The translations under genes and the position numbers were made by a program. From a virus, in the IMG/VR virus record IMGVR_UViG_3300032294_001887, positions 1-64,000 of that record: a DNA stretch of 64,000 nucleotides; one strand, given 5' to 3'. Shown here one piece after another: positions 16,037 through 23,589 of this stretch. The notes beneath the pieces were generated by a model, which did no database searches, was not told the origin of the DNA, and saw only the letters and a list, made by a program, of their open reading frames with translations. Position 1 is the stretch's first letter, and every line of letters begins with the position of its first letter.

Positions 16037-19000
16037 ATGGCAACAGCACAAGCAAACCAAAAAGTATTCGTATCTCCGGGTGTGTATACATCAGAAACAG
16101 ACCTATCTTTCGTAGCCCAAAGTGTGGGTGTTACGACATTAGGTTTAGTGGGAGAAACAATTAAAGGACCGGCCTTTGAACCGATATTTATAACTAATTA
16201 TGATGAGTTCCAAGCCTATTTCGGAGGAACAGAACCTGTCAAATTTTATAATACCCAAATTCCAAAATATGAAGCAGCATACATTGCTAAATCATATTTA
16301 CAACAATCAAATCAATTATTTGTAACAAGAATTCTTGGATTATCGGGATATGATGCAGGACCATCTTGGTCACTTACTGTTACTGCTAATGTAGACCCAA
16401 CAACAATTGGTAATCCATCTACGGGAACATCATTCACGGCAAATTTTACAGGTAATTCATTAAATGATACTGTTGAGTTTATTGGGGGCGCATTACCTTC
16501 TTTTGTGTCGGCAAATTTAAATACTCAATATAGACTACAAGATGGTTCGATATCGACATTGCAAACTGATTTTAATAATTACATAAATTCTATTGTAAAT
16601 TCACCATCAACTTCAGCAACAACTGCAATTATATATGGAGCAATACCTCAAACCGATTATAATTCGGTAACAGGTCAATATACAACAATTAGAAATCCGT
16701 ATGGGTGTGTAAACAATTTTGATAACAATGATTTAACTGCAGGTTCAAATGACAGTTGGTATTATGCAAATTTTGAATTTGCAAATAATGATTCTACATT
16801 AGGTTATACAGGATATTCATTTAATTATGCGGTTTCTAGTTTAATTACAGGTGCGTCAAATACATTCACGGGTACAGTAACCGGTAATTCATATACATTC
16901 ACAGGTACGGCATATAGTGAGTTCAATAATATGGTTGTTGCAACCATTCGTTCAAGAGGTATTTCACTTTACACAAATCAAACTTCAAGTATTAACCATG
17001 GTCCGGTTTATCAAGTAGGAATAGATTATGATAATGGAGGAACTTCAGCACTAAATAATTTACAATTGATTTGTACTGGACAATATTCTGATATTTCAAA
17101 ATCACCTTTCTCAACATTTTTATTATCAGGGGTAACCAAAGATAATGATGTATTCTCATTCGAAACTTCAATGTTAGCGTCATCGTCAAAATACATTACA
17201 AAAGTTTTAGGAGTTGATAATTTTGGAAAATCAAGATTTGAAGTCCCAATTTATGTTGAGGAAGCTTATCAAGGTTCATTAAATTACGCATATAATCAAG
17301 GTTATATAAGAGGATTAGCGTGTGACTTAATTGCATTACCAGGTGCTAGAAGTCAAAACCCAACATCAATTGCTTATAATTTAGAAAGATATCAATCACC
17401 TGAAACACCATATTTGGTTTCGGAATTAAGAGGTAATAAAGTTTATAACTTATTTAAATTTATATCAATTTCTGATGGAGATTCTGCAAACACTGAAATA
17501 AAAGTGTCAATCGCAAATCTTTCATTTAACAATATGTCATTTGATGTGTTAGTTAGAAATTTCTTTGATACTGACTCAAATCCTGTGGTAATTGAAAAAT
17601 TCACAAATTGTAATTTAGACCCATTATCAAATAATTTTATAGCTAAAAAAATTGGTTCATCTGATGGAGAATACGCGTTAATCTCAAGATATATCATGGT
17701 TGAGATGTCTCCAGAAGCACCAATAGATGCTTTACCATGTGGATTTTACGGATATACTCAAAGAGAATATTTGGATTATGACACTTATCCTTCACCGTAT
17801 CCTAAATTTAAGACAAAATATTATTTCCCTGGTGAAGTTATTGCAAATCCACCATTTGGTGTAAATGCTGGAGGAGCACCTATAGAATCCTCAGGAGATA
17901 TTGTACGAAGAAGTTATTTAGGATTTTCAACACAATTTGGAATTGACGAATCTTTCTTAACATATAAGGGTAAACAAACACCTTCAAATTGGATATCCGA
18001 CCCGACGGCTGAAGGTCAACCTTGGAATGTAAGAAGTAAAGGATTCCACATGGATTCAGGTGCAACGGTTGTTACAATCGGAATCAGTTCTAAATCAAGC
18101 GGAGAAACAGCGTTTGAATGTGGTGTGGCTAATTTCACTAGCGACCCTGATACACAAGAAAGTCCATATTATTTCATATATTCAAGAAAATATACGGTAT
18201 GTTTCGCAGGAGGTTTTGACGGGTGGGATATCTACAGAGAATGGAGAACTAACGAAGACAGATTCCAATTAGGAGCAACAGGTTATTTAGCAGGAGCTTA
18301 TCCGGGTTCAAGATACCCAAATGCTACAGGAGACGGATTATTTAAAAGAATTGTTGTTCAAAATAATACTCAAGATTTCGCTAATACAGACTACTACGCT
18401 TACTTACTTGGTATTTTAACATTCGCAAATCCTGAATCTACAAACATTAACGTTTTTGCAACAACTGCGATTGATTATGTTAATAACTCAAACTTAGTAG
18501 AAGAAGCAATTGATATGATTCAATTCTCAAGAGCGGATTCAGTTTATATTGCAACAACACCTGACTATAGAATGTATACACCGGATGCGACTAACTCTCA
18601 AGACATTATTTATTCTCAAGAAGCGGTTGATAATCTAGACAACACAGGAATTGACTCTAACTATACCGCAACTTATTATCCTTGGATATTAGTTCGTGAT
18701 ACCGTTAACAATACACAAATTTATTTACCACCGACAGGTGAAGTTTGTAGAAACTTAGCATTGACTGATAATATATCATTCCCTTGGTTCGCATCAGCGG
18801 GTTACACGAGAGGTCTTGTAAGTTCAATCAAAGCTAGACAAAAACTTACACAGACAGATAGAGATACCTTGTATCAGGGTAGAATTAACCCTATCGCAAC
18901 TTTCTCAGATGTTGGAACTGTAATTTGGGGTAATAAAACTTTGCAAGTTGCTGACTCAGCACTTAACAGATTGAATGTAAGAAGATTATTACTTCAAGCT

Positions 19001-19276
19001 CGTAAATTGATTTCGGCGGTAGCGGTAAGATTATTATTTGAACAAAATGACCAAATCGTTAGACAACAATTCTTGGATAGTGTTAACCCAATCTTGGATT
19101 CAATCAGAAGAGATAGAGGTTTATATGATTTCCGTGTAACTGTATCTTCAACACCTGAAGATTTAGACAGAAATACATTAACAGGTAAAATATATTTGAA
19201 ACCTACTAAGGCGTTAGAGTTCATCGATATCGAGTTCTTCATAACTCCAACAGGTGCTTCATTTGAAAATATCTAA
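16037..19276 (+). CDS. Contractile tail sheath protein (large, with insertions)
   Basis: FVSPGVYTSETD N-terminus; PWFASAGYTRG, RINPI, WGNKTL, LNVRRLL, LFEQND, KPTKALEFI. Confidence 0.95.
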   Translation: MATAQANQKVFVSPGVYTSETDLSFVAQSVGVTTLGLVGETIKGPAFEPIFITNYDEFQAYFGGTEPVKFYNTQIPKYEAAYIAKSYLQQSNQLFVTRILGLSGYDAGPSWSLTVTANVDPTTIGNPSTGTSFTANFTGNSLNDTVEFIGGALPSFVSANLNTQYRLQDGSISTLQTDFNNYINSIVNSPSTSATTAIIYGAIPQTDYNSVTGQYTTIRNPYGCVNNFDNNDLTAGSNDSWYYANFEFANNDSTLGYTGYSFNYAVSSLITGASNTFTGTVTGNSYTFTGTAYSEFNNMVVATIRSRGISLYTNQTSSINHGPVYQVGIDYDNGGTSALNNLQLICTGQYSDISKSPFSTFLLSGVTKDNDVFSFETSMLASSSKYITKVLGVDNFGKSRFEVPIYVEEAYQGSLNYAYNQGYIRGLACDLIALPGARSQNPTSIAYNLERYQSPETPYLVSELRGNKVYNLFKFISISDGDSANTEIKVSIANLSFNNMSFDVLVRNFFDTDSNPVVIEKFTNCNLDPLSNNFIAKKIGSSDGEYALISRYIMVEMSPEAPIDALPCGFYGYTQREYLDYDTYPSPYPKFKTKYYFPGEVIANPPFGVNAGGAPIESSGDIVRRSYLGFSTQFGIDESFLTYKGKQTPSNWISDPTAEGQPWNVRSKGFHMDSGATVVTIGISSKSSGETAFECGVANFTSDPDTQESPYYFIYSRKYTVCFAGGFDGWDIYREWRTNEDRFQLGATGYLAGAYPGSRYPNATGDGLFKRIVVQNNTQDFANTDYYAYLLGILTFANPESTNINVFATTAIDYVNNSNLVEEAIDMIQFSRADSVYIATTPDYRMYTPDATNSQDIIYSQEAVDNLDNTGIDSNYTATYYPWILVRDTVNNTQIYLPPTGEVCRNLALTDNISFPWFASAGYTRGLVSSIKARQKLTQTDRDTLYQGRINPIATFSDVGTVIWGNKTLQVADSALNRLNVRRLLLQARKLISAVAVRLLFEQNDQIVRQQFLDSVNPILDSIRRDRGLYDFRVTVSSTPEDLDRNTLTGKIYLKPTKALEFIDIEFFITPTGASFENI

Positions 19277-19320: not shown

Positions 19321-20148
19321 ATGGAAAGACAACTTAAAGAAGGATTTAAACTTGAAGGGACACCAGATATGAAATATTACGCATTCGATTGGGATGATAA
19401 TATTGTTCATATGCCAACTAAAATTATGTTAAAAACTGAAGATGGTGAGGAAATTGGTATGAGTACCGATGACTTTGCAGAGTATAGACATGATTTAGGT
19501 AAAACCCCTGTTCAATATAAAGGAGATACTATTGTCGGTTTTGCGGACAATCCATTTAGAAATTTTAGAACGGAAGGTGACAAAGATTTTTTAGTTGATG
19601 CGATGAGAGCAAAAAAAGGACCGGCATTTGATGACTTTAGAGAAGCAATTAACAATGGGTCTATTTTTTCAATAATTACCGCAAGAGGGCATAATCCTGA
19701 AACCTTAAAACAAGCTATTTATAATTACATTATAAGTGGTTTCAATGGAATAGATAAAAACATGTTAATTAAAAATTTAAAAAAATATAGAACATTTGTG
19801 GATGAAGATGAAATGAGTGACGATGAATTAATTAAATCATATTTAGAGTTAAATAAGTATCACCCTGTTAGTTTTGGTGATGAAGAAGGTGCTGCAAATC
19901 CCGAAGAATTAAAAGTTAAAGCGATGGAAGATTTTGTATCTTATATAAAAGGAATGGCAGGAATACTTAATAAAAGAGCCTTTATTAAAAATGATATCTC
20001 AAATAATTTCATACCAGACATTAGTATTGGTTTTTCAGATGATGATATGAAAAATGTAGAAGTAATGAGTAAACATTTTAAAGATAAACCAGATAATATA
20101 GTTAAGACTTATTCTACTGCTGGAGGTATTAAAAAGTTATATAACTAG
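19321..20148 (+). CDS. HAD-superfamily phosphatase-like protein
   Basis: AFDWDDNI (motif I), ITARGH (II), K (III), GFSDDD (IV). Confidence 0.7.
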   Translation: MERQLKEGFKLEGTPDMKYYAFDWDDNIVHMPTKIMLKTEDGEEIGMSTDDFAEYRHDLGKTPVQYKGDTIVGFADNPFRNFRTEGDKDFLVDAMRAKKGPAFDDFREAINNGSIFSIITARGHNPETLKQAIYNYIISGFNGIDKNMLIKNLKKYRTFVDEDEMSDDELIKSYLELNKYHPVSFGDEEGAANPEELKVKAMEDFVSYIKGMAGILNKRAFIKNDISNNFIPDISIGFSDDDMKNVEVMSKHFKDKPDNIVKTYSTAGGIKKLYN

Positions 20149-20242: not shown

Positions 20243-20731
20243 ATGGCTGATTTATTAATGAAAATGCCGATACCTTACGAACCGAAACGACAGAATCGTT
20301 TTATTTTAAGGTTTCCATCAAGCTTAGGAATAAATGAATGGTTCGTAGAAACTGCGGCAAGACCATCAATTAAAATTGGTTCAACTGAAATCCAATTTTT
20401 AAATACATCAACATTTGTTGCGGGTAGATTTAATTGGGACCCAATTTCGGTTAAATTCCGTGACCCGATTGGTCCTTCAGCGGCTCAAGCACTTATGGAG
20501 TGGGTTCGTCTACATGCAGAATCTGTTACCGGTCGTATGGGTTATGCCGCGGGTTATAAAAAAGATATCGACCTTGAAATGTTAGACCCAACAGGAGTTG
20601 TTGTTGAAAAATGGATATTATATGGAACTTTTTTAACTGATGTAAATTTTGGTCAATTAAGTTATAGTCAAGACGCATTAGCGGATATTACCGCACAACT
20701 TCGTATGGATAGATGTGTGTTAGTTTATTGA
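20243..20731 (+). CDS. Tail tube protein (T4 gp19-like)
   Basis: EPKRQNRF, W..I.V.FRD, EW, YKKD..LEMLDPTG..VEKW.L.G; follows sheath. Confidence 0.9.
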   Translation: MADLLMKMPIPYEPKRQNRFILRFPSSLGINEWFVETAARPSIKIGSTEIQFLNTSTFVAGRFNWDPISVKFRDPIGPSAAQALMEWVRLHAESVTGRMGYAAGYKKDIDLEMLDPTGVVVEKWILYGTFLTDVNFGQLSYSQDALADITAQLRMDRCVLVY

Positions 20732-20772: not shown

Positions 20773-20810
20773 TTAACCGTAAAGCAATAAACTTTACGGT
20801 TAATTTTTTT
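20773..20810 (+). terminator. Intrinsic terminator after tube gene
   Basis: TTAACCGTAAAG-caataaa-CTTTACGGTTAA then T7. Confidence 0.8.
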
Positions 20811-20814
20811 ATAT

Positions 20815-21558
20815 ATGGACACACAATCAAGAGACTACGGTCAAGAAAATTTTACATTACCACACGACGTGGTGTTATTACCTTCACAGGGAATTTTTTA
20901 CAAAAACAAAAAGAAATCATTAAAAATTGGTTATCTTACGGCATCTGACGAAAATATTATAATGGCAGGAGCAAATGATTTAACTCTCAATTTATTAAGA
21001 GCAAAAATATATGAACCCGATATTAAAGTTGAAGAACTTATTGAGGGTGATGTTGAGGCTATCCTAATATTTTTGAGAAATACTGGGTTTGGACCTGAAA
21101 TTACTCTAAATTTAACTGACCCTGTTACAAAAAAACCTTTTCAATCAAATGTATTGTTAGACCAGTTACCTGTTATTAGTGGTCAAAAACCAAATGATGA
21201 TGGAACTTTTGTGATTACTCTACCAAAAACGCAATCATCAATTAAATTAAAACCATTAAACTATGGAGAGATTATGGAGATTAGTAAATTGGCGGATTCA
21301 TATCCTCAAGGTAGGGTTGTTCCAAAAATTACTTGGAGATTACAAAAAGAAATTGTTGAGGTTGATGGTTCTACCGATAAATCAGTTATTTCTAAGTTTG
21401 TTGAGTCCATGCCAATTGTGGATTCAAAACACATTAGAAAATTTATGAATGAAAATGAACCAAGATTAGATATGACTAAAACAATTATGGCCCCGTCCGG
21501 AGAAAAGCTAATAGTGAATGTTGGCTTTGGGGTGGACTTTTTTCGCCCTTTCTTCTGA
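20815..21558 (+). CDS. Tail/baseplate-hub assembly chaperone (T4 gp26/gp51-like)
   Basis: V.LPSQG.FY, LTASDENI, GD..AILIFLR; between tube and tape measure. Confidence 0.7.
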   Translation: MDTQSRDYGQENFTLPHDVVLLPSQGIFYKNKKKSLKIGYLTASDENIIMAGANDLTLNLLRAKIYEPDIKVEELIEGDVEAILIFLRNTGFGPEITLNLTDPVTKKPFQSNVLLDQLPVISGQKPNDDGTFVITLPKTQSSIKLKPLNYGEIMEISKLADSYPQGRVVPKITWRLQKEIVEVDGSTDKSVISKFVESMPIVDSKHIRKFMNENEPRLDMTKTIMAPSGEKLIVNVGFGVDFFRPFF

Positions 21559-21697
21559 TTATAGGAAAAGTCAGATAGATGAATTTTACTATCTGAACAC
21601 ATTGATGAAGATTACTTATCAAGATTTTGAAAGAATGCCAATATTTGTTAGAAAATATTTATTGGATAAATGGATAGAAGATAATAAGAAGGACTAA
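21542..21697 (+). CDS. +1-frame extension / small chaperone partner ORF (not in ORF track)
   Basis: FALSSDYRKSQIDEFYYLNTLMKITYQDFERMPIFVRKYLLDKWIEDNKKD*; open from ATG 21518; overlaps upstream gene at TTT TTT CGC. Confidence 0.65.
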   Translation, partial: FALSSDYRKSQIDEFYYLNTLMKITYQDFERMPIFVRKYLLDKWIEDNKKD

Positions 21698-21713
21698 TTT
21701 TTTAGTCCTTCTT
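21686..21713 (+). terminator. 12-bp perfect hairpin overlapping the small ORF stop
   Basis: AAGAAGGACTAA-tttt-TTAGTCCTTCTT. Confidence 0.65.
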
Positions 21714-21741: not shown

Positions 21742-23589
21742 ATGGCAGATTATAATCCAGAAGACCAAGGTAGTTTTGACGAGGCTAAAAAAAGTTTAGA
21801 AGCTTTTAGTGACCTCGCTAACCAAACAGTACTTTCTATTTTTAAGATGTATGAGGGTGCTGATAAGATTAACAACGCCTTTCTACAAGGAAGAACTCGT
21901 TTAGACGAGATGAGTGACGCTGTTGCAAAATCGGCAGCCGGTGTCCTTCGTTTGGGTGGGAATCTTGGTGATGTTAATACCACTATGATAGGTATTGCTG
22001 ATGGTGCTAGAAGGAATGTAATTGCGACAGAAGACCAAGTTAGTAAGTTATATGCGGCATCTACAATTCTCAATACTACCTCAAGTTCCTTAGTTGAAAA
22101 TTTTGCGGAAGCGGGGTACGAGGTATCTCAAGTTGGAGTTAATTTACAGGATTCTATTCAGTATGTTCAAAGTGTCGGTCTTAACGCCAAAACAGTTGTA
22201 AAAGATGTTGCGAATAACATGGAGTTGATGAATAGATTCAACTTCAGTGACGGTGTTCAAGGATTGACAAAAATGGCTGCTCAAGCTTCAATGTTGAGAT
22301 TTGATATGCAAAACACTGCTAATTTCGCAGATAAAGTAATGAGTCCTGAGAAAGCAATTGAAGCGGCTGCCGGGTTCCAAAGACTAGGTGTTAATATTGG
22401 TAACTTGGTTGACCCATTTGCGTTAATGAATGACTCAATTAATAATCCTGGTGCATTACAAGATAGTATTATTAAAGCCACAAAAAAATATACAGAGTTT
22501 GACGAAAAAACAAAATCATTTAAGATAAACCCACAAGGTATTTTGATGTTAAAAGAATTGTCGGATGTTACTGGAATTAGTGCAAGAGAACTTTCAAAAA
22601 CCGCATTAGCTGCCGCCGATTTAGATAAAAGGTTATCGGCTATTAGTCCATCATTGAAATTTGAAAAAGAGGAAGACAGACAGTTGTTGGCTAATATGGC
22701 AACAAAGAAGGATGGTGAATATGTTATACAAATTAAAGATGACCAAGGGGCGATTGAATACAAAAAACTTGGAGATATTACGGCAGATGAATTTAAAGAG
22801 TTAAGAAAAAAACAAGATGAGGCACCTAAAACACTTGAAGAAATTCAAATTAGTCAATTAGATTATTTAAAAGACTCAAGTTCATCATTAAGGTCAATAC
22901 TTGCAAAAGGGACTTTTGGGGCTGCAGGGTCTGCATTCGTTAGGGGAAATTTTTTAGGCGCCGAAAGAATTAGTAGGGGATTTACGGGTTCACTTGATGA
23001 AAATATTCCTAAAAGTGCTGAAATAATAAAAGATATTAATAGTTCTATGGAGAAAATGAAGGAACTTTTTAATATAAAAGAACTTGGTAAAATAAGTGAT
23101 GCTGACTTTGCAACTAAACTCTCAAAACTTGAAAGTGAAGTTAAAAGTAAAGTAAATACTCTTGGTGAAAAAGGTATTGAAAAGTTAATAAAAACTTTTG
23201 AAGATACTAATAAAAAAATTGATGGAACAAGTGGGATTGAAGAAAAATTTAAAAAATATAGTTCAGATATGTTAGCCGAGATTGGAAGACCACAACAATC
23301 ATCTAATAAAATTTCTGGTACTGTAACCAAATCACCAATATCAAGAAATAGTTTTTTAGGTCAACAAAATGTTAACCAAACATCCGCAACAGGTTCTTTT
23401 GTAAAAGAAATTAACCAAAATATTAAGGTTGAAATTGACTACAAAACCCCGACAGGTGGAGATAGTGAACAAAAAATGAAAGATTATTTTGACAAACAAT
23501 TTAAACTAATGACTCAAACAGAAGAATTTAAAAGGATTAATTATGAATATCAGTTACAAATGAAAAAAGAACTTGGATTAAAAAGGTAA
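21742..23589 (+). CDS. Putative tape measure protein
   Basis: Ala/Gln/Lys-rich helical sequence after tube and chaperone genes. Confidence 0.7.
   Translation: MADYNPEDQGSFDEAKKSLEAFSDLANQTVLSIFKMYEGADKINNAFLQGRTRLDEMSDAVAKSAAGVLRLGGNLGDVNTTMIGIADGARRNVIATEDQVSKLYAASTILNTTSSSLVENFAEAGYEVSQVGVNLQDSIQYVQSVGLNAKTVVKDVANNMELMNRFNFSDGVQGLTKMAAQASMLRFDMQNTANFADKVMSPEKAIEAAAGFQRLGVNIGNLVDPFALMNDSINNPGALQDSIIKATKKYTEFDEKTKSFKINPQGILMLKELSDVTGISARELSKTALAAADLDKRLSAISPSLKFEKEEDRQLLANMATKKDGEYVIQIKDDQGAIEYKKLGDITADEFKELRKKQDEAPKTLEEIQISQLDYLKDSSSSLRSILAKGTFGAAGSAFVRGNFLGAERISRGFTGSLDENIPKSAEIIKDINSSMEKMKELFNIKELGKISDADFATKLSKLESEVKSKVNTLGEKGIEKLIKTFEDTNKKIDGTSGIEEKFKKYSSDMLAEIGRPQQSSNKISGTVTKSPISRNSFLGQQNVNQTSATGSFVKEINQNIKVEIDYKTPTGGDSEQKMKDYFDKQFKLMTQTEEFKRINYEYQLQMKKELGLKR

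Follow-up and report, generated by a model that had tools for sequence, protein, structure and literature searches.

The window analysed here is a 64,000-nt stretch of DNA (positions 1 to 64,000 of the IMG/VR record IMGVR_UViG_3300032294_001887) from an uncultured giant aquatic phage with a 32% G+C genome. On its plus strand, at 20815–21558, is an open reading frame (ORF) of 247 amino acids (aa) that would encode the short, gp26-like form of a tail assembly chaperone, and this gene is overlapped at its 3' end by an extension in the +1 frame that is probably reached by ribosomal frameshifting. The frame-0 ORF ends with GAC (21535–21537), TTT (21538–21540), TTT (21541–21543), CGC (21544–21546), CCT TTC TTC and TGA (21556–21558), giving the protein the C-terminus GVDFFRPFF*. 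In the +1 frame there is a TGA at 21515–21517 and an ATG at 21518, after which the frame is open until the TAA at 21695–21697; the two frames overlap for 41 nt only. The candidate shift site is TTT TTT CGC (21538–21546), and the stretch from 21538 to 21558 is dual-coding, being read as FFRPFF* in frame 0 and as FFALSS(D) in the +1 frame. A slip from 21541–21543 to 21542–21544 adds the extension (21545–21697) and produces a predicted long form of 293 aa (20815–21543 joined to 21545–21697) with the junction GVDFF/ALSSDYR and the predicted junction peptide GVDFFALSSDYR. The G-rich sequence GGGGTGG (21529–21535) lies 2 to 5 nt 5' of the T run. A terminator-like hairpin of 12 pairs (21686–21713; -17.3 kcal/mol, fold z-score -4.2) lies downstream of the +1 ORF rather than of the frame-0 stop and ends the transcription unit. 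An earlier note on this DNA had described the 3' end of the gene, the +1 frame open to 21697, the 12-bp hairpin and the GGGGTGG, and all of these sequence statements are confirmed. The slip from TTT to TTC that it proposed does open the +1 frame, and the extension, which it had put at 51 codons, consists of 50 sense codons and the stop.

By sequence, the 247-aa gene is a member of the T4 gp26/gp51 family, which is labelled 'baseplate hub' in the databases. The frame-0 protein scores 27.7 bits against Pfam PF12322 (T4_baseplate), for which the cut-off is 24.5, and matches phrog_150 ('baseplate hub') with an E-value of 5.5e-11 over profile positions 18–233 of 282. When the fused sequence is used instead, the phrog_150 score rises from 43.4 to 50.7 bits (E 3.3e-13) and the alignment crosses the junction, continuing to residue 265. 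The two T4 proteins are both PF12322 members, with gp26 (208 aa) occupying phrog_150 positions 14–235 and gp51 (249 aa) occupying 13–280.

The chance of finding 50 open codons in the +1 frame at this place is about 0.037, and therefore the open frame in the window alone is weak evidence. A total of 191 related loci with 27 to 100% identity were collected from IMG/VR and GenBank; among them are 103 distinct (unique) +1 versions, and the unique close sequences number 51. Counting extensions of at least 35 aa, 189 of the 191 loci have the +1 frame open for 44 to 86 codons past the stop and one has the -1 frame open; the two exceptions are truncated contigs. Because it is kept in so many related loci, the +1 layout is more than chance. 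The extensions form a single family with the consensus FF[AVG]LSS.YR...[DE]EFYYL......[ST]Y.DF..MP.F.R[KR]Y, and a second, overlapping ORF that has no conserved start codon is kept across the relatives. The layout occurs in phages of Bacteroidota, Cyanobacteria and Firmicutes hosts.

The end of the short form is conserved as well. There are 4,527 homologues in 90% clusters, and the best 120 of these are nearly all 247 aa long. An exhaustive search gave 1,273 representatives; among the best 150 of the 1,273, matches that reach the C-terminus of the query nearly all end within a few residues of the end of their own protein, even in proteins with long N-terminal additions. The position of the stop is therefore conserved. 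The short tails read ..FF[RWYFL]P.. and then stop.

The extension is under purifying selection as a +1-frame coding sequence. Across the close set of 51 unique sequences, variable sites before the T run are distributed 39, 24 and 68 over frame-0 codon positions 1, 2 and 3, and those after the stop 23, 14 and 43 over the +1-frame positions. Synonymous changes in the extension outnumber non-synonymous ones in the +1 frame (511:310), compared with ratios of 94:815 and 174:734 for the remaining frames. The switch in codon phase occurs exactly at the T run. Between the T run and the stop, where 21 nt are read in both frames, 3 of the 21 sites are variable, as against more than half upstream.

Homologues exist in which the extension is part of an uninterrupted gene. 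The natural long forms P0206, P0229 and P0269 (304 to 324 aa) carry it in frame, their C-termini align with it, and the alignment with the fused window protein has no gap at the junction. A relative of P0206, in the record IMGVR_UViG_3300018080_000237 (L196), has two adjacent genes of the family at L196:4081-5966, one short (278 aa) and one long (347 aa). The short protein ends ..LFYPDAEL, like the frame-0 tails, and the long protein bears the extension; this tandem arrangement differs from that of the divergent genes 26 and 51 of T4. Two separate genes are present in T4 and in L196, but the window phage has one. A single PF12322 gene was found in the 74.8-kb record, in a 100%-complete relative of 321 kb and in the 484-kb LR756508.1. 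The phages thus carry a pair of family genes or else a lone gene with a +1 extension, a pattern of gene content which argues that neither the short nor the long form can be spared and that recoding gives access to the extension.

The AlphaFold (AF2) model of the short form has a predicted local distance difference test score (pLDDT) of 87 and a predicted template modelling score (pTM) of 0.82. Its top four VIA matches are 3fgx (Z 6.1), YqbN (Z 5.7), the tail assembly chaperone (TAC) of HK97 (Z 4.8) and PLE ORF19 (Z 4.6), and the first unrelated row has a Z of 3.2. Over the short and long models together, 3fgx_B reaches Z 6.1 to 7.1, YqbN (3klu) 5.4 to 5.7 and the HK97 TAC (2ob9) 4.8 to 5.3, all of which are below the caution line of Z 8. 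In the long-form model, 3fgx and HK97 (gp10) match residues 2–102 and YqbN matches residues 130–222. This suggests that the modelled chaperone body consists of two tandem TAC-like domains, which may account for a body twice the size of a lambda-type chaperone. Foldseek gave 2ob9 with a probability of 0.54 (E 1.3) and nothing below E 1e-3, and a sequence search of the PDB found no match. The AlphaFold model of the natural long form P0206 has a pLDDT of 93; its extension region is helical (pLDDT 83 to 98), with helices at 256–270, 277–282 and 285–318. The extension module of the long-form model had only generic helix-loop-helix and coiled-coil matches in VIA. The earlier note had called this a tail chaperone gene, and a chaperone with a TAC-like predicted fold fits these models, but the sequence family is that of T4 gp26/gp51 and not the lambda-G type.

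The zones in which a shift is permitted in the various clades intersect between the T run and about 15 nt downstream of it. An in-frame TTT followed by C or T is present in the permitted zone in 103 of the 103 unique versions. The codon after the TTT is CGT in 44, CGC in 22, CTT in 17, CGG in 9, CTC in 5, TAA in 3, TGG in 2 and CTA in 1. The UUU_CGN motif named in the earlier note is thus present in the window, but the core conserved across the relatives is UUU followed by C or U. The rule extends to cultured phages, whose sites are TTT_CTT (Flavobacterium phage vB_FspM_immuto, here immuto), TTT_TTT_TGG (Microcystis phage Mel-JY01), TTC_TTT_CGT (Streptococcus phage GXN1), TTT_TTT_CAC (Bacillus phage SP-15) and TTT_TTT_AGT (LIS04).

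Codon usage was counted over 35 ORFs of the window (19,194 codons, of which 659 are for arginine). As had been suggested, CGC is rare and AGA dominates: CGC accounts for 8 of the 659 (1.2%), CGG for 0.6%, CGT for 7.4% and AGR for 83%, AGA alone making up 71%. With 8 occurrences in all 19,194 codons, CGC fits a slowly decoded A-site codon. When the codon at the site is for arginine it is always CGN (75 unique versions), despite the 83% share of AGR. The chaperone site is the only in-frame TTT_CGN in the 35 ORFs, where 4.5 would be expected. More generally, in-frame TTT_C is depleted in these long ORFs, with 51 observed and 90 expected, which is consistent with avoidance of a shift-prone dicodon. 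No tRNA genes were found in the window.

Taken together, the comparisons favour the production of a short and a long chaperone from one gene by +1 ribosomal slippage at UUU_Y, with a probability of roughly 0.7. The +1 frameshift put forward in the earlier note gains support from a site kept in 103 of 103 versions, the lack of a conserved start, and in-frame long homologues that are gapless at the junction. Normal decoding would end at 21556–21558 and yield a short form of 247 aa. A minority of ribosomes would hold tRNA-Phe in the P site on UUU (21541–21543 or 21538–21540) as the A site awaits the very rare CGC. This tRNA, which reads UUU by wobble, could then re-pair one base forward on UUC (or from UUU to UUU). 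The pyrimidine that follows the P-site UUU would give tRNA-Phe a G:C wobble pair once it has slipped. Slippage at the first or the second TTT would give the identical product, ..GVDFF-ALSSDYRK..., and translation in the +1 frame for 50 codons would complete the 293-aa long form, whose C-terminal module would be helical. The gene product would be a tail (hub and tape-measure) assembly chaperone, its short form the counterpart of T4 gp26 and its long form that of gp51; functionally, the pair would match lambda G and GT. That the shift is made by the ribosome and not by RNA polymerase is an inference, as are its efficiency and the part that each form plays.

Some of the data weigh against this reading. 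The Z-scores of the modelled fold are modest, and the TAC-like fold should therefore be seen as support and not as proof. The profile of the extension is not significantly similar to T4 gp51 or gp26 in hhalign (E 0.11 and 0.13, respectively), the best stretch being gp51 residues 222–243. In one subclade (L083, L084, L085 and L087) the Phe-Phe position is TTC TTC (TGG), and the UUU_Y site is therefore not strictly universal; the shift site there may have moved, either to TTT_TAA just before the frame-0 end (L085 and L087) or to CTT_T. Lastly, most of the relatives (81 of the 103 unique versions) have a run of six or seven T, and in the window itself RNA polymerase could slip on such a run. By dropping one U or adding two in the T6 run, it would generate some mRNAs that encode the long form in a single frame. 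This explanation is unlikely. The homopolymer is not conserved in the two-frame relatives: 22 of the 103 unique versions have T runs of 3 to 4, and these, like the cultured phage immuto, retain both frames around TTT_CTT or TTT_CTA. Since these clades lack a homopolymer, the ribosome is favoured over RNA polymerase. Slippage of the polymerase would also leave unexplained why the next codon starts with C or U and why it is so often the rare CGN. Six T is short for efficient transcriptional slippage.

Another explanation is that the +1 frame is a small gene in its own right, translated alone from the ATG at 21518 (59 aa) or from the ATG at 21605 (a shorter product), with no fusion made. The first of these codons is present in the window and its closest relatives, L001 also has an ATG in the overlap, and the annotators of the GenBank records for Mel-JY01, immuto and SP-15 called small ORFs at this place. 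A comparison across homologues of the shift site with the ATG at 21518, which the earlier note had proposed, favours a frameshift: all 103 unique versions keep TTT followed by C or T, and 52 of them lack the ATG at 21518. The reverse pattern, with the site lost and a start codon kept, is not what the homologues contain. These 52 have no ATG anywhere in the overlap, and 15 of the 103 have no ATG, GTG or TTG there. In L048 and L182 a TAG in the +1 frame, one codon ahead of the T run, separates the position of the ATG from the run. The P0128 clade has a TAA or TGA in the +1 frame two codons ahead of the run, leaving an overlap of 26 nt without a start codon. The +1-frame residues before the T run vary freely (W/S/L/Q/R/stop and T/N/S/I), and those after it are conserved. 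The sole Met conserved across clades comes late in the domain, in the MP.F motif, so that the conserved LSSDYRK..EFYYL precedes any conserved Met. Added to this, the homologues described above have the extension segment fused in frame. Independent initiation is thus quite improbable.

The same frame would be reached by a -2 ribosomal frameshift on the T run, which would add one Phe to the product (DFFFALSS rather than DFFALSS). The sequence U_UUU_UUC does let an A-site tRNA-Phe re-pair two bases back, but such a shift is impossible in the clades with AAA TTT CTT or AAC TTT CTA, and the natural long forms align without an extra residue; this route is therefore very improbable. That the gene is a single-frame gene broken by a sequencing error or a pseudogene mutation is hardly credible: the break does fall within a T6 run, an error-prone context, but contigs assembled independently share this stop and frame layout by the hundred (191 loci were examined), as do finished genomes of cultured phages, and the short tail ...FF.P..*, besides being conserved, agrees with the tails of the free-standing short genes in L196 and T4. 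Reassignment of the stop codon is rejected because the frame-0 stops vary between TGA, TAA and TAG and because several different in-frame stops follow, the TGA of the window being succeeded by a TAG and then another TGA.

If a +1 slip at UUU_Y does occur, elements near the site may stimulate it. The GGG glycine codon that supplies the GGGG 5 nt ahead of the run does not vary among the 51 close unique sequences, even though GGG makes up 12% of the glycine codons. No such G-rich element occurs in the P0128 and P0137 clades or in L001, and for the window a Shine-Dalgarno-like stimulatory role is no more than a possibility. The predicted hosts are Bacteroidota (PMC12619734). Bacteroidota make little use of Shine-Dalgarno pairing. 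The T run of the window lies in the loop of a terminator-like hairpin at 21529–21549 with the arms GGGGTGGA and TTCGCCCT, followed by the U-rich TTCTTCT. As a candidate stimulator, the GGGGTGGA/TTCGCCCT hairpin was rejected: in a fixed-register count 84.6% of the cells pair over 43 unique junctions, there are no double-sided changes, and shuffled sequences do equally well. Other stems occur at the same place in L112 (CTGTAG/TTACAG), in phage GXN1 (GGGAC/GTCCC) and in the P0137 clade (GCCAAA TTTC TTTGGC), which are anecdotal cases. Two downstream hairpins, CTTTCTTCT/AGGAAAAG and CAGATAG/CTATCTG, were also set aside, being unconserved outside the close clade and coinciding with conserved residues.

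Shifts in the other direction were considered as well. At the chaperone junction of the window no canonical -1 heptamer of the form X_XXY_YYZ leads into the -1 frame, which closes after 6 codons. In the Xanthomonas phage Xoo-sp13 (L200) a homologous extension is in the -1 frame and follows T_TTT_TTT, a classic -1 heptamer (GC T_TTT_TTT A). The extension is also in the -1 frame in LR756511.1 (L201), where an ATG begins the conserved part and the extension may be a separate gene.

The chaperone gene lies between a firmly identified tail tube gene and a candidate tape measure. The tube gene (20243–20731, plus strand) is its upstream neighbour and matches phrog_4542 with an E-value of 2e-24; a terminator-like hairpin on the same strand (20773–20803), with a 12-pair stem followed by a T run, separates the two genes. 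Further upstream is the sheath gene (16037–19276). Between the sheath and tube genes there is a 275-aa ORF (19321–20148) with no Pfam or PHROG match. Downstream, also on the plus strand, is an ORF of 615 aa (21742–23589). The earlier note had placed the chaperone upstream of the tape measure, and the position does fit, but the identity of this ORF as the tape measure is only a lead, based on its position and on Atlas features. It occupies the place of the annotated tape measure in phages immuto, SP-15 and LIS04, and its Atlas (language-model) features lead to the PF10145 and TMP_3 tape-measure clusters at 0.90 to 0.91, which is likewise a lead only. The ORF has no match in Pfam or PHROG, a tblastn search against phages was empty, and BLASTP against T4 gp29 found no match. 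In the moraphage paper, the tape measure was not identified in moraphage genomes. Were the genome of the window of moraphage lineage, the 615-aa ORF would be a candidate for the moraphage tape measure.

No slippage is annotated at this gene in the GenBank records examined. Pieces of the +1 extension have been annotated instead: immuto26A_233 (36 aa, L193:3327-3437) and SP15_046 (39 aa, L199:2294-2413) both end at the stop of the extension, and WWT39326.1 of Mel-JY01 (78 aa, L194:3228-3464) overlaps the 3' end of the chaperone gene. None of the GenBank records examined, those of these three phages included, annotates the long form, and the fragments are labelled 'hypothetical proteins'. The long form will escape gene callers as well as frameshift predictors that look for -1 heptamers. 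The moraphage paper makes no mention of a +1 frameshift in the gp26/gp51 family. Full-text literature searches, whose coverage did not extend to Vladimirov, Gautam and Davidson (2022), likewise found no paper on such a frameshift, and priority is thus unsettled.

The odds are about even that a +1 UUU_Y frameshift is the usual route to the long form of gp26/gp51-type chaperones across many jumbo and large myophages, in the Bacteroidota, Cyanobacteria and Firmicutes, with the genes 26 and 51 of T4 and the pair in L196 being hard-wired versions. The tail-chaperone frameshift is the textbook case of conserved phage recoding and T4 is listed as its exception (PMC5009743). The T4 chaperone family would then use recoding in most of the lineages examined, T4 having replaced the shift with two genes, and T4 would no longer be an exception to the rule. 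It would also be the first time that stop-independent UUU_Y +1 sites are seen to form a large natural family in bacterial viruses. So large a natural collection of +1 sites from bacteria, all without a stop codon, would be useful for understanding how P-site slippage and rare codons set the ratio of the products.

The closest relatives by family are the T4 proteins gp26 and gp51, which are hub assembly chaperones; gp51 is required for assembly but is not part of the particle (Leiman et al. 2010, PMC3004832). The window gene belongs to the same family (PF12322 and phrog_150), and in both phages the short and long forms share an N-terminal body. On the profile, the frame-0 product ends where gp26 ends and the fused product extends as gp51 does. 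In contrast, T4 has two divergently transcribed genes and no recoding, whereas the window phage has one gene with a +1 extension, and this extension resembles the gp51 tail in position only (hhalign E 0.11). Vladimirov, Gautam and Davidson (2022, Virology 566:9) are reported to have recognised the two T4 proteins as tail assembly chaperones of T4-like phages; according to a paper citing their work, these phages have one short and one long chaperone gene instead of the frameshift.

In long-tailed phages the two chaperones are made by a frameshift, as in gpG and gpGT of lambda (Levin 1993; Xu, Hendrix and Duda 2004; reviewed in PMC5009743), and the G-T frameshift is described as conserved 'except T4' (PMC5009743). 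The window gene resembles this system in lying between the tube gene and a candidate tape measure, in having a second ORF without its own start that extends the first near its 3' end, in the expectation of a short major and a long minor form, and in the TAC-like predicted fold. It differs in that the direction is +1 and not -1, there is no XXXYYYZ heptamer, and the body is about 245 aa, with two predicted tandem TAC-like domains, rather than about 100 to 140 aa.

There are precedents for +1 recoding in the structural modules of tailed viruses, including the tail-chaperone frameshift of the haloarchaeal myovirus HSTV-2 (PMC5009743) and those in the capsid and tail genes of the Listeria phage PSA (Zimmer 2003, as cited in PMC9024508). 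Both involve other protein families and other shift sites, and neither is in the gp26/gp51 family. The PSA +1 frameshift uses a proline codon before a stop. In the prfB (release factor 2, RF2) frameshift, as proposed for the window, a P-site tRNA slips by +1 at a slow A site, and the window also has GGGG 5 nt before the first TTT. Sites of the prfB type present a stop codon to the A site, and their Shine-Dalgarno element lies 3 nt upstream; in the window, on the other hand, the A-site codon is CGC with no stop, the spacing is not 3 nt, and the G-rich element is missing in several clades.

The nearest parallels are sites where UUU is followed by a pyrimidine. Such UUU_Ynn sites are especially prone to +1 frameshifting in bacteria, and one is the site of the YopN-TyeA fusion in Yersinia (PMC5009743). 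The parallel drawn in the earlier note with the UUU_CGN of influenza A PA-X, where the site is UCC_UUU_CGU, is apt for the window, but the bacterial UUU_Ynn site is a closer precedent. All of these share a P-site UUU followed by a pyrimidine, a slow or rare A-site codon and no obvious 3' stimulator. The UCC in the E site of PA-X is not present at the site in the window. Unlike the bacterial UUU_Ynn sites, the site in the window would serve a structural-assembly pair, and it is kept across phages of the Bacteroidota, Cyanobacteria and Firmicutes.

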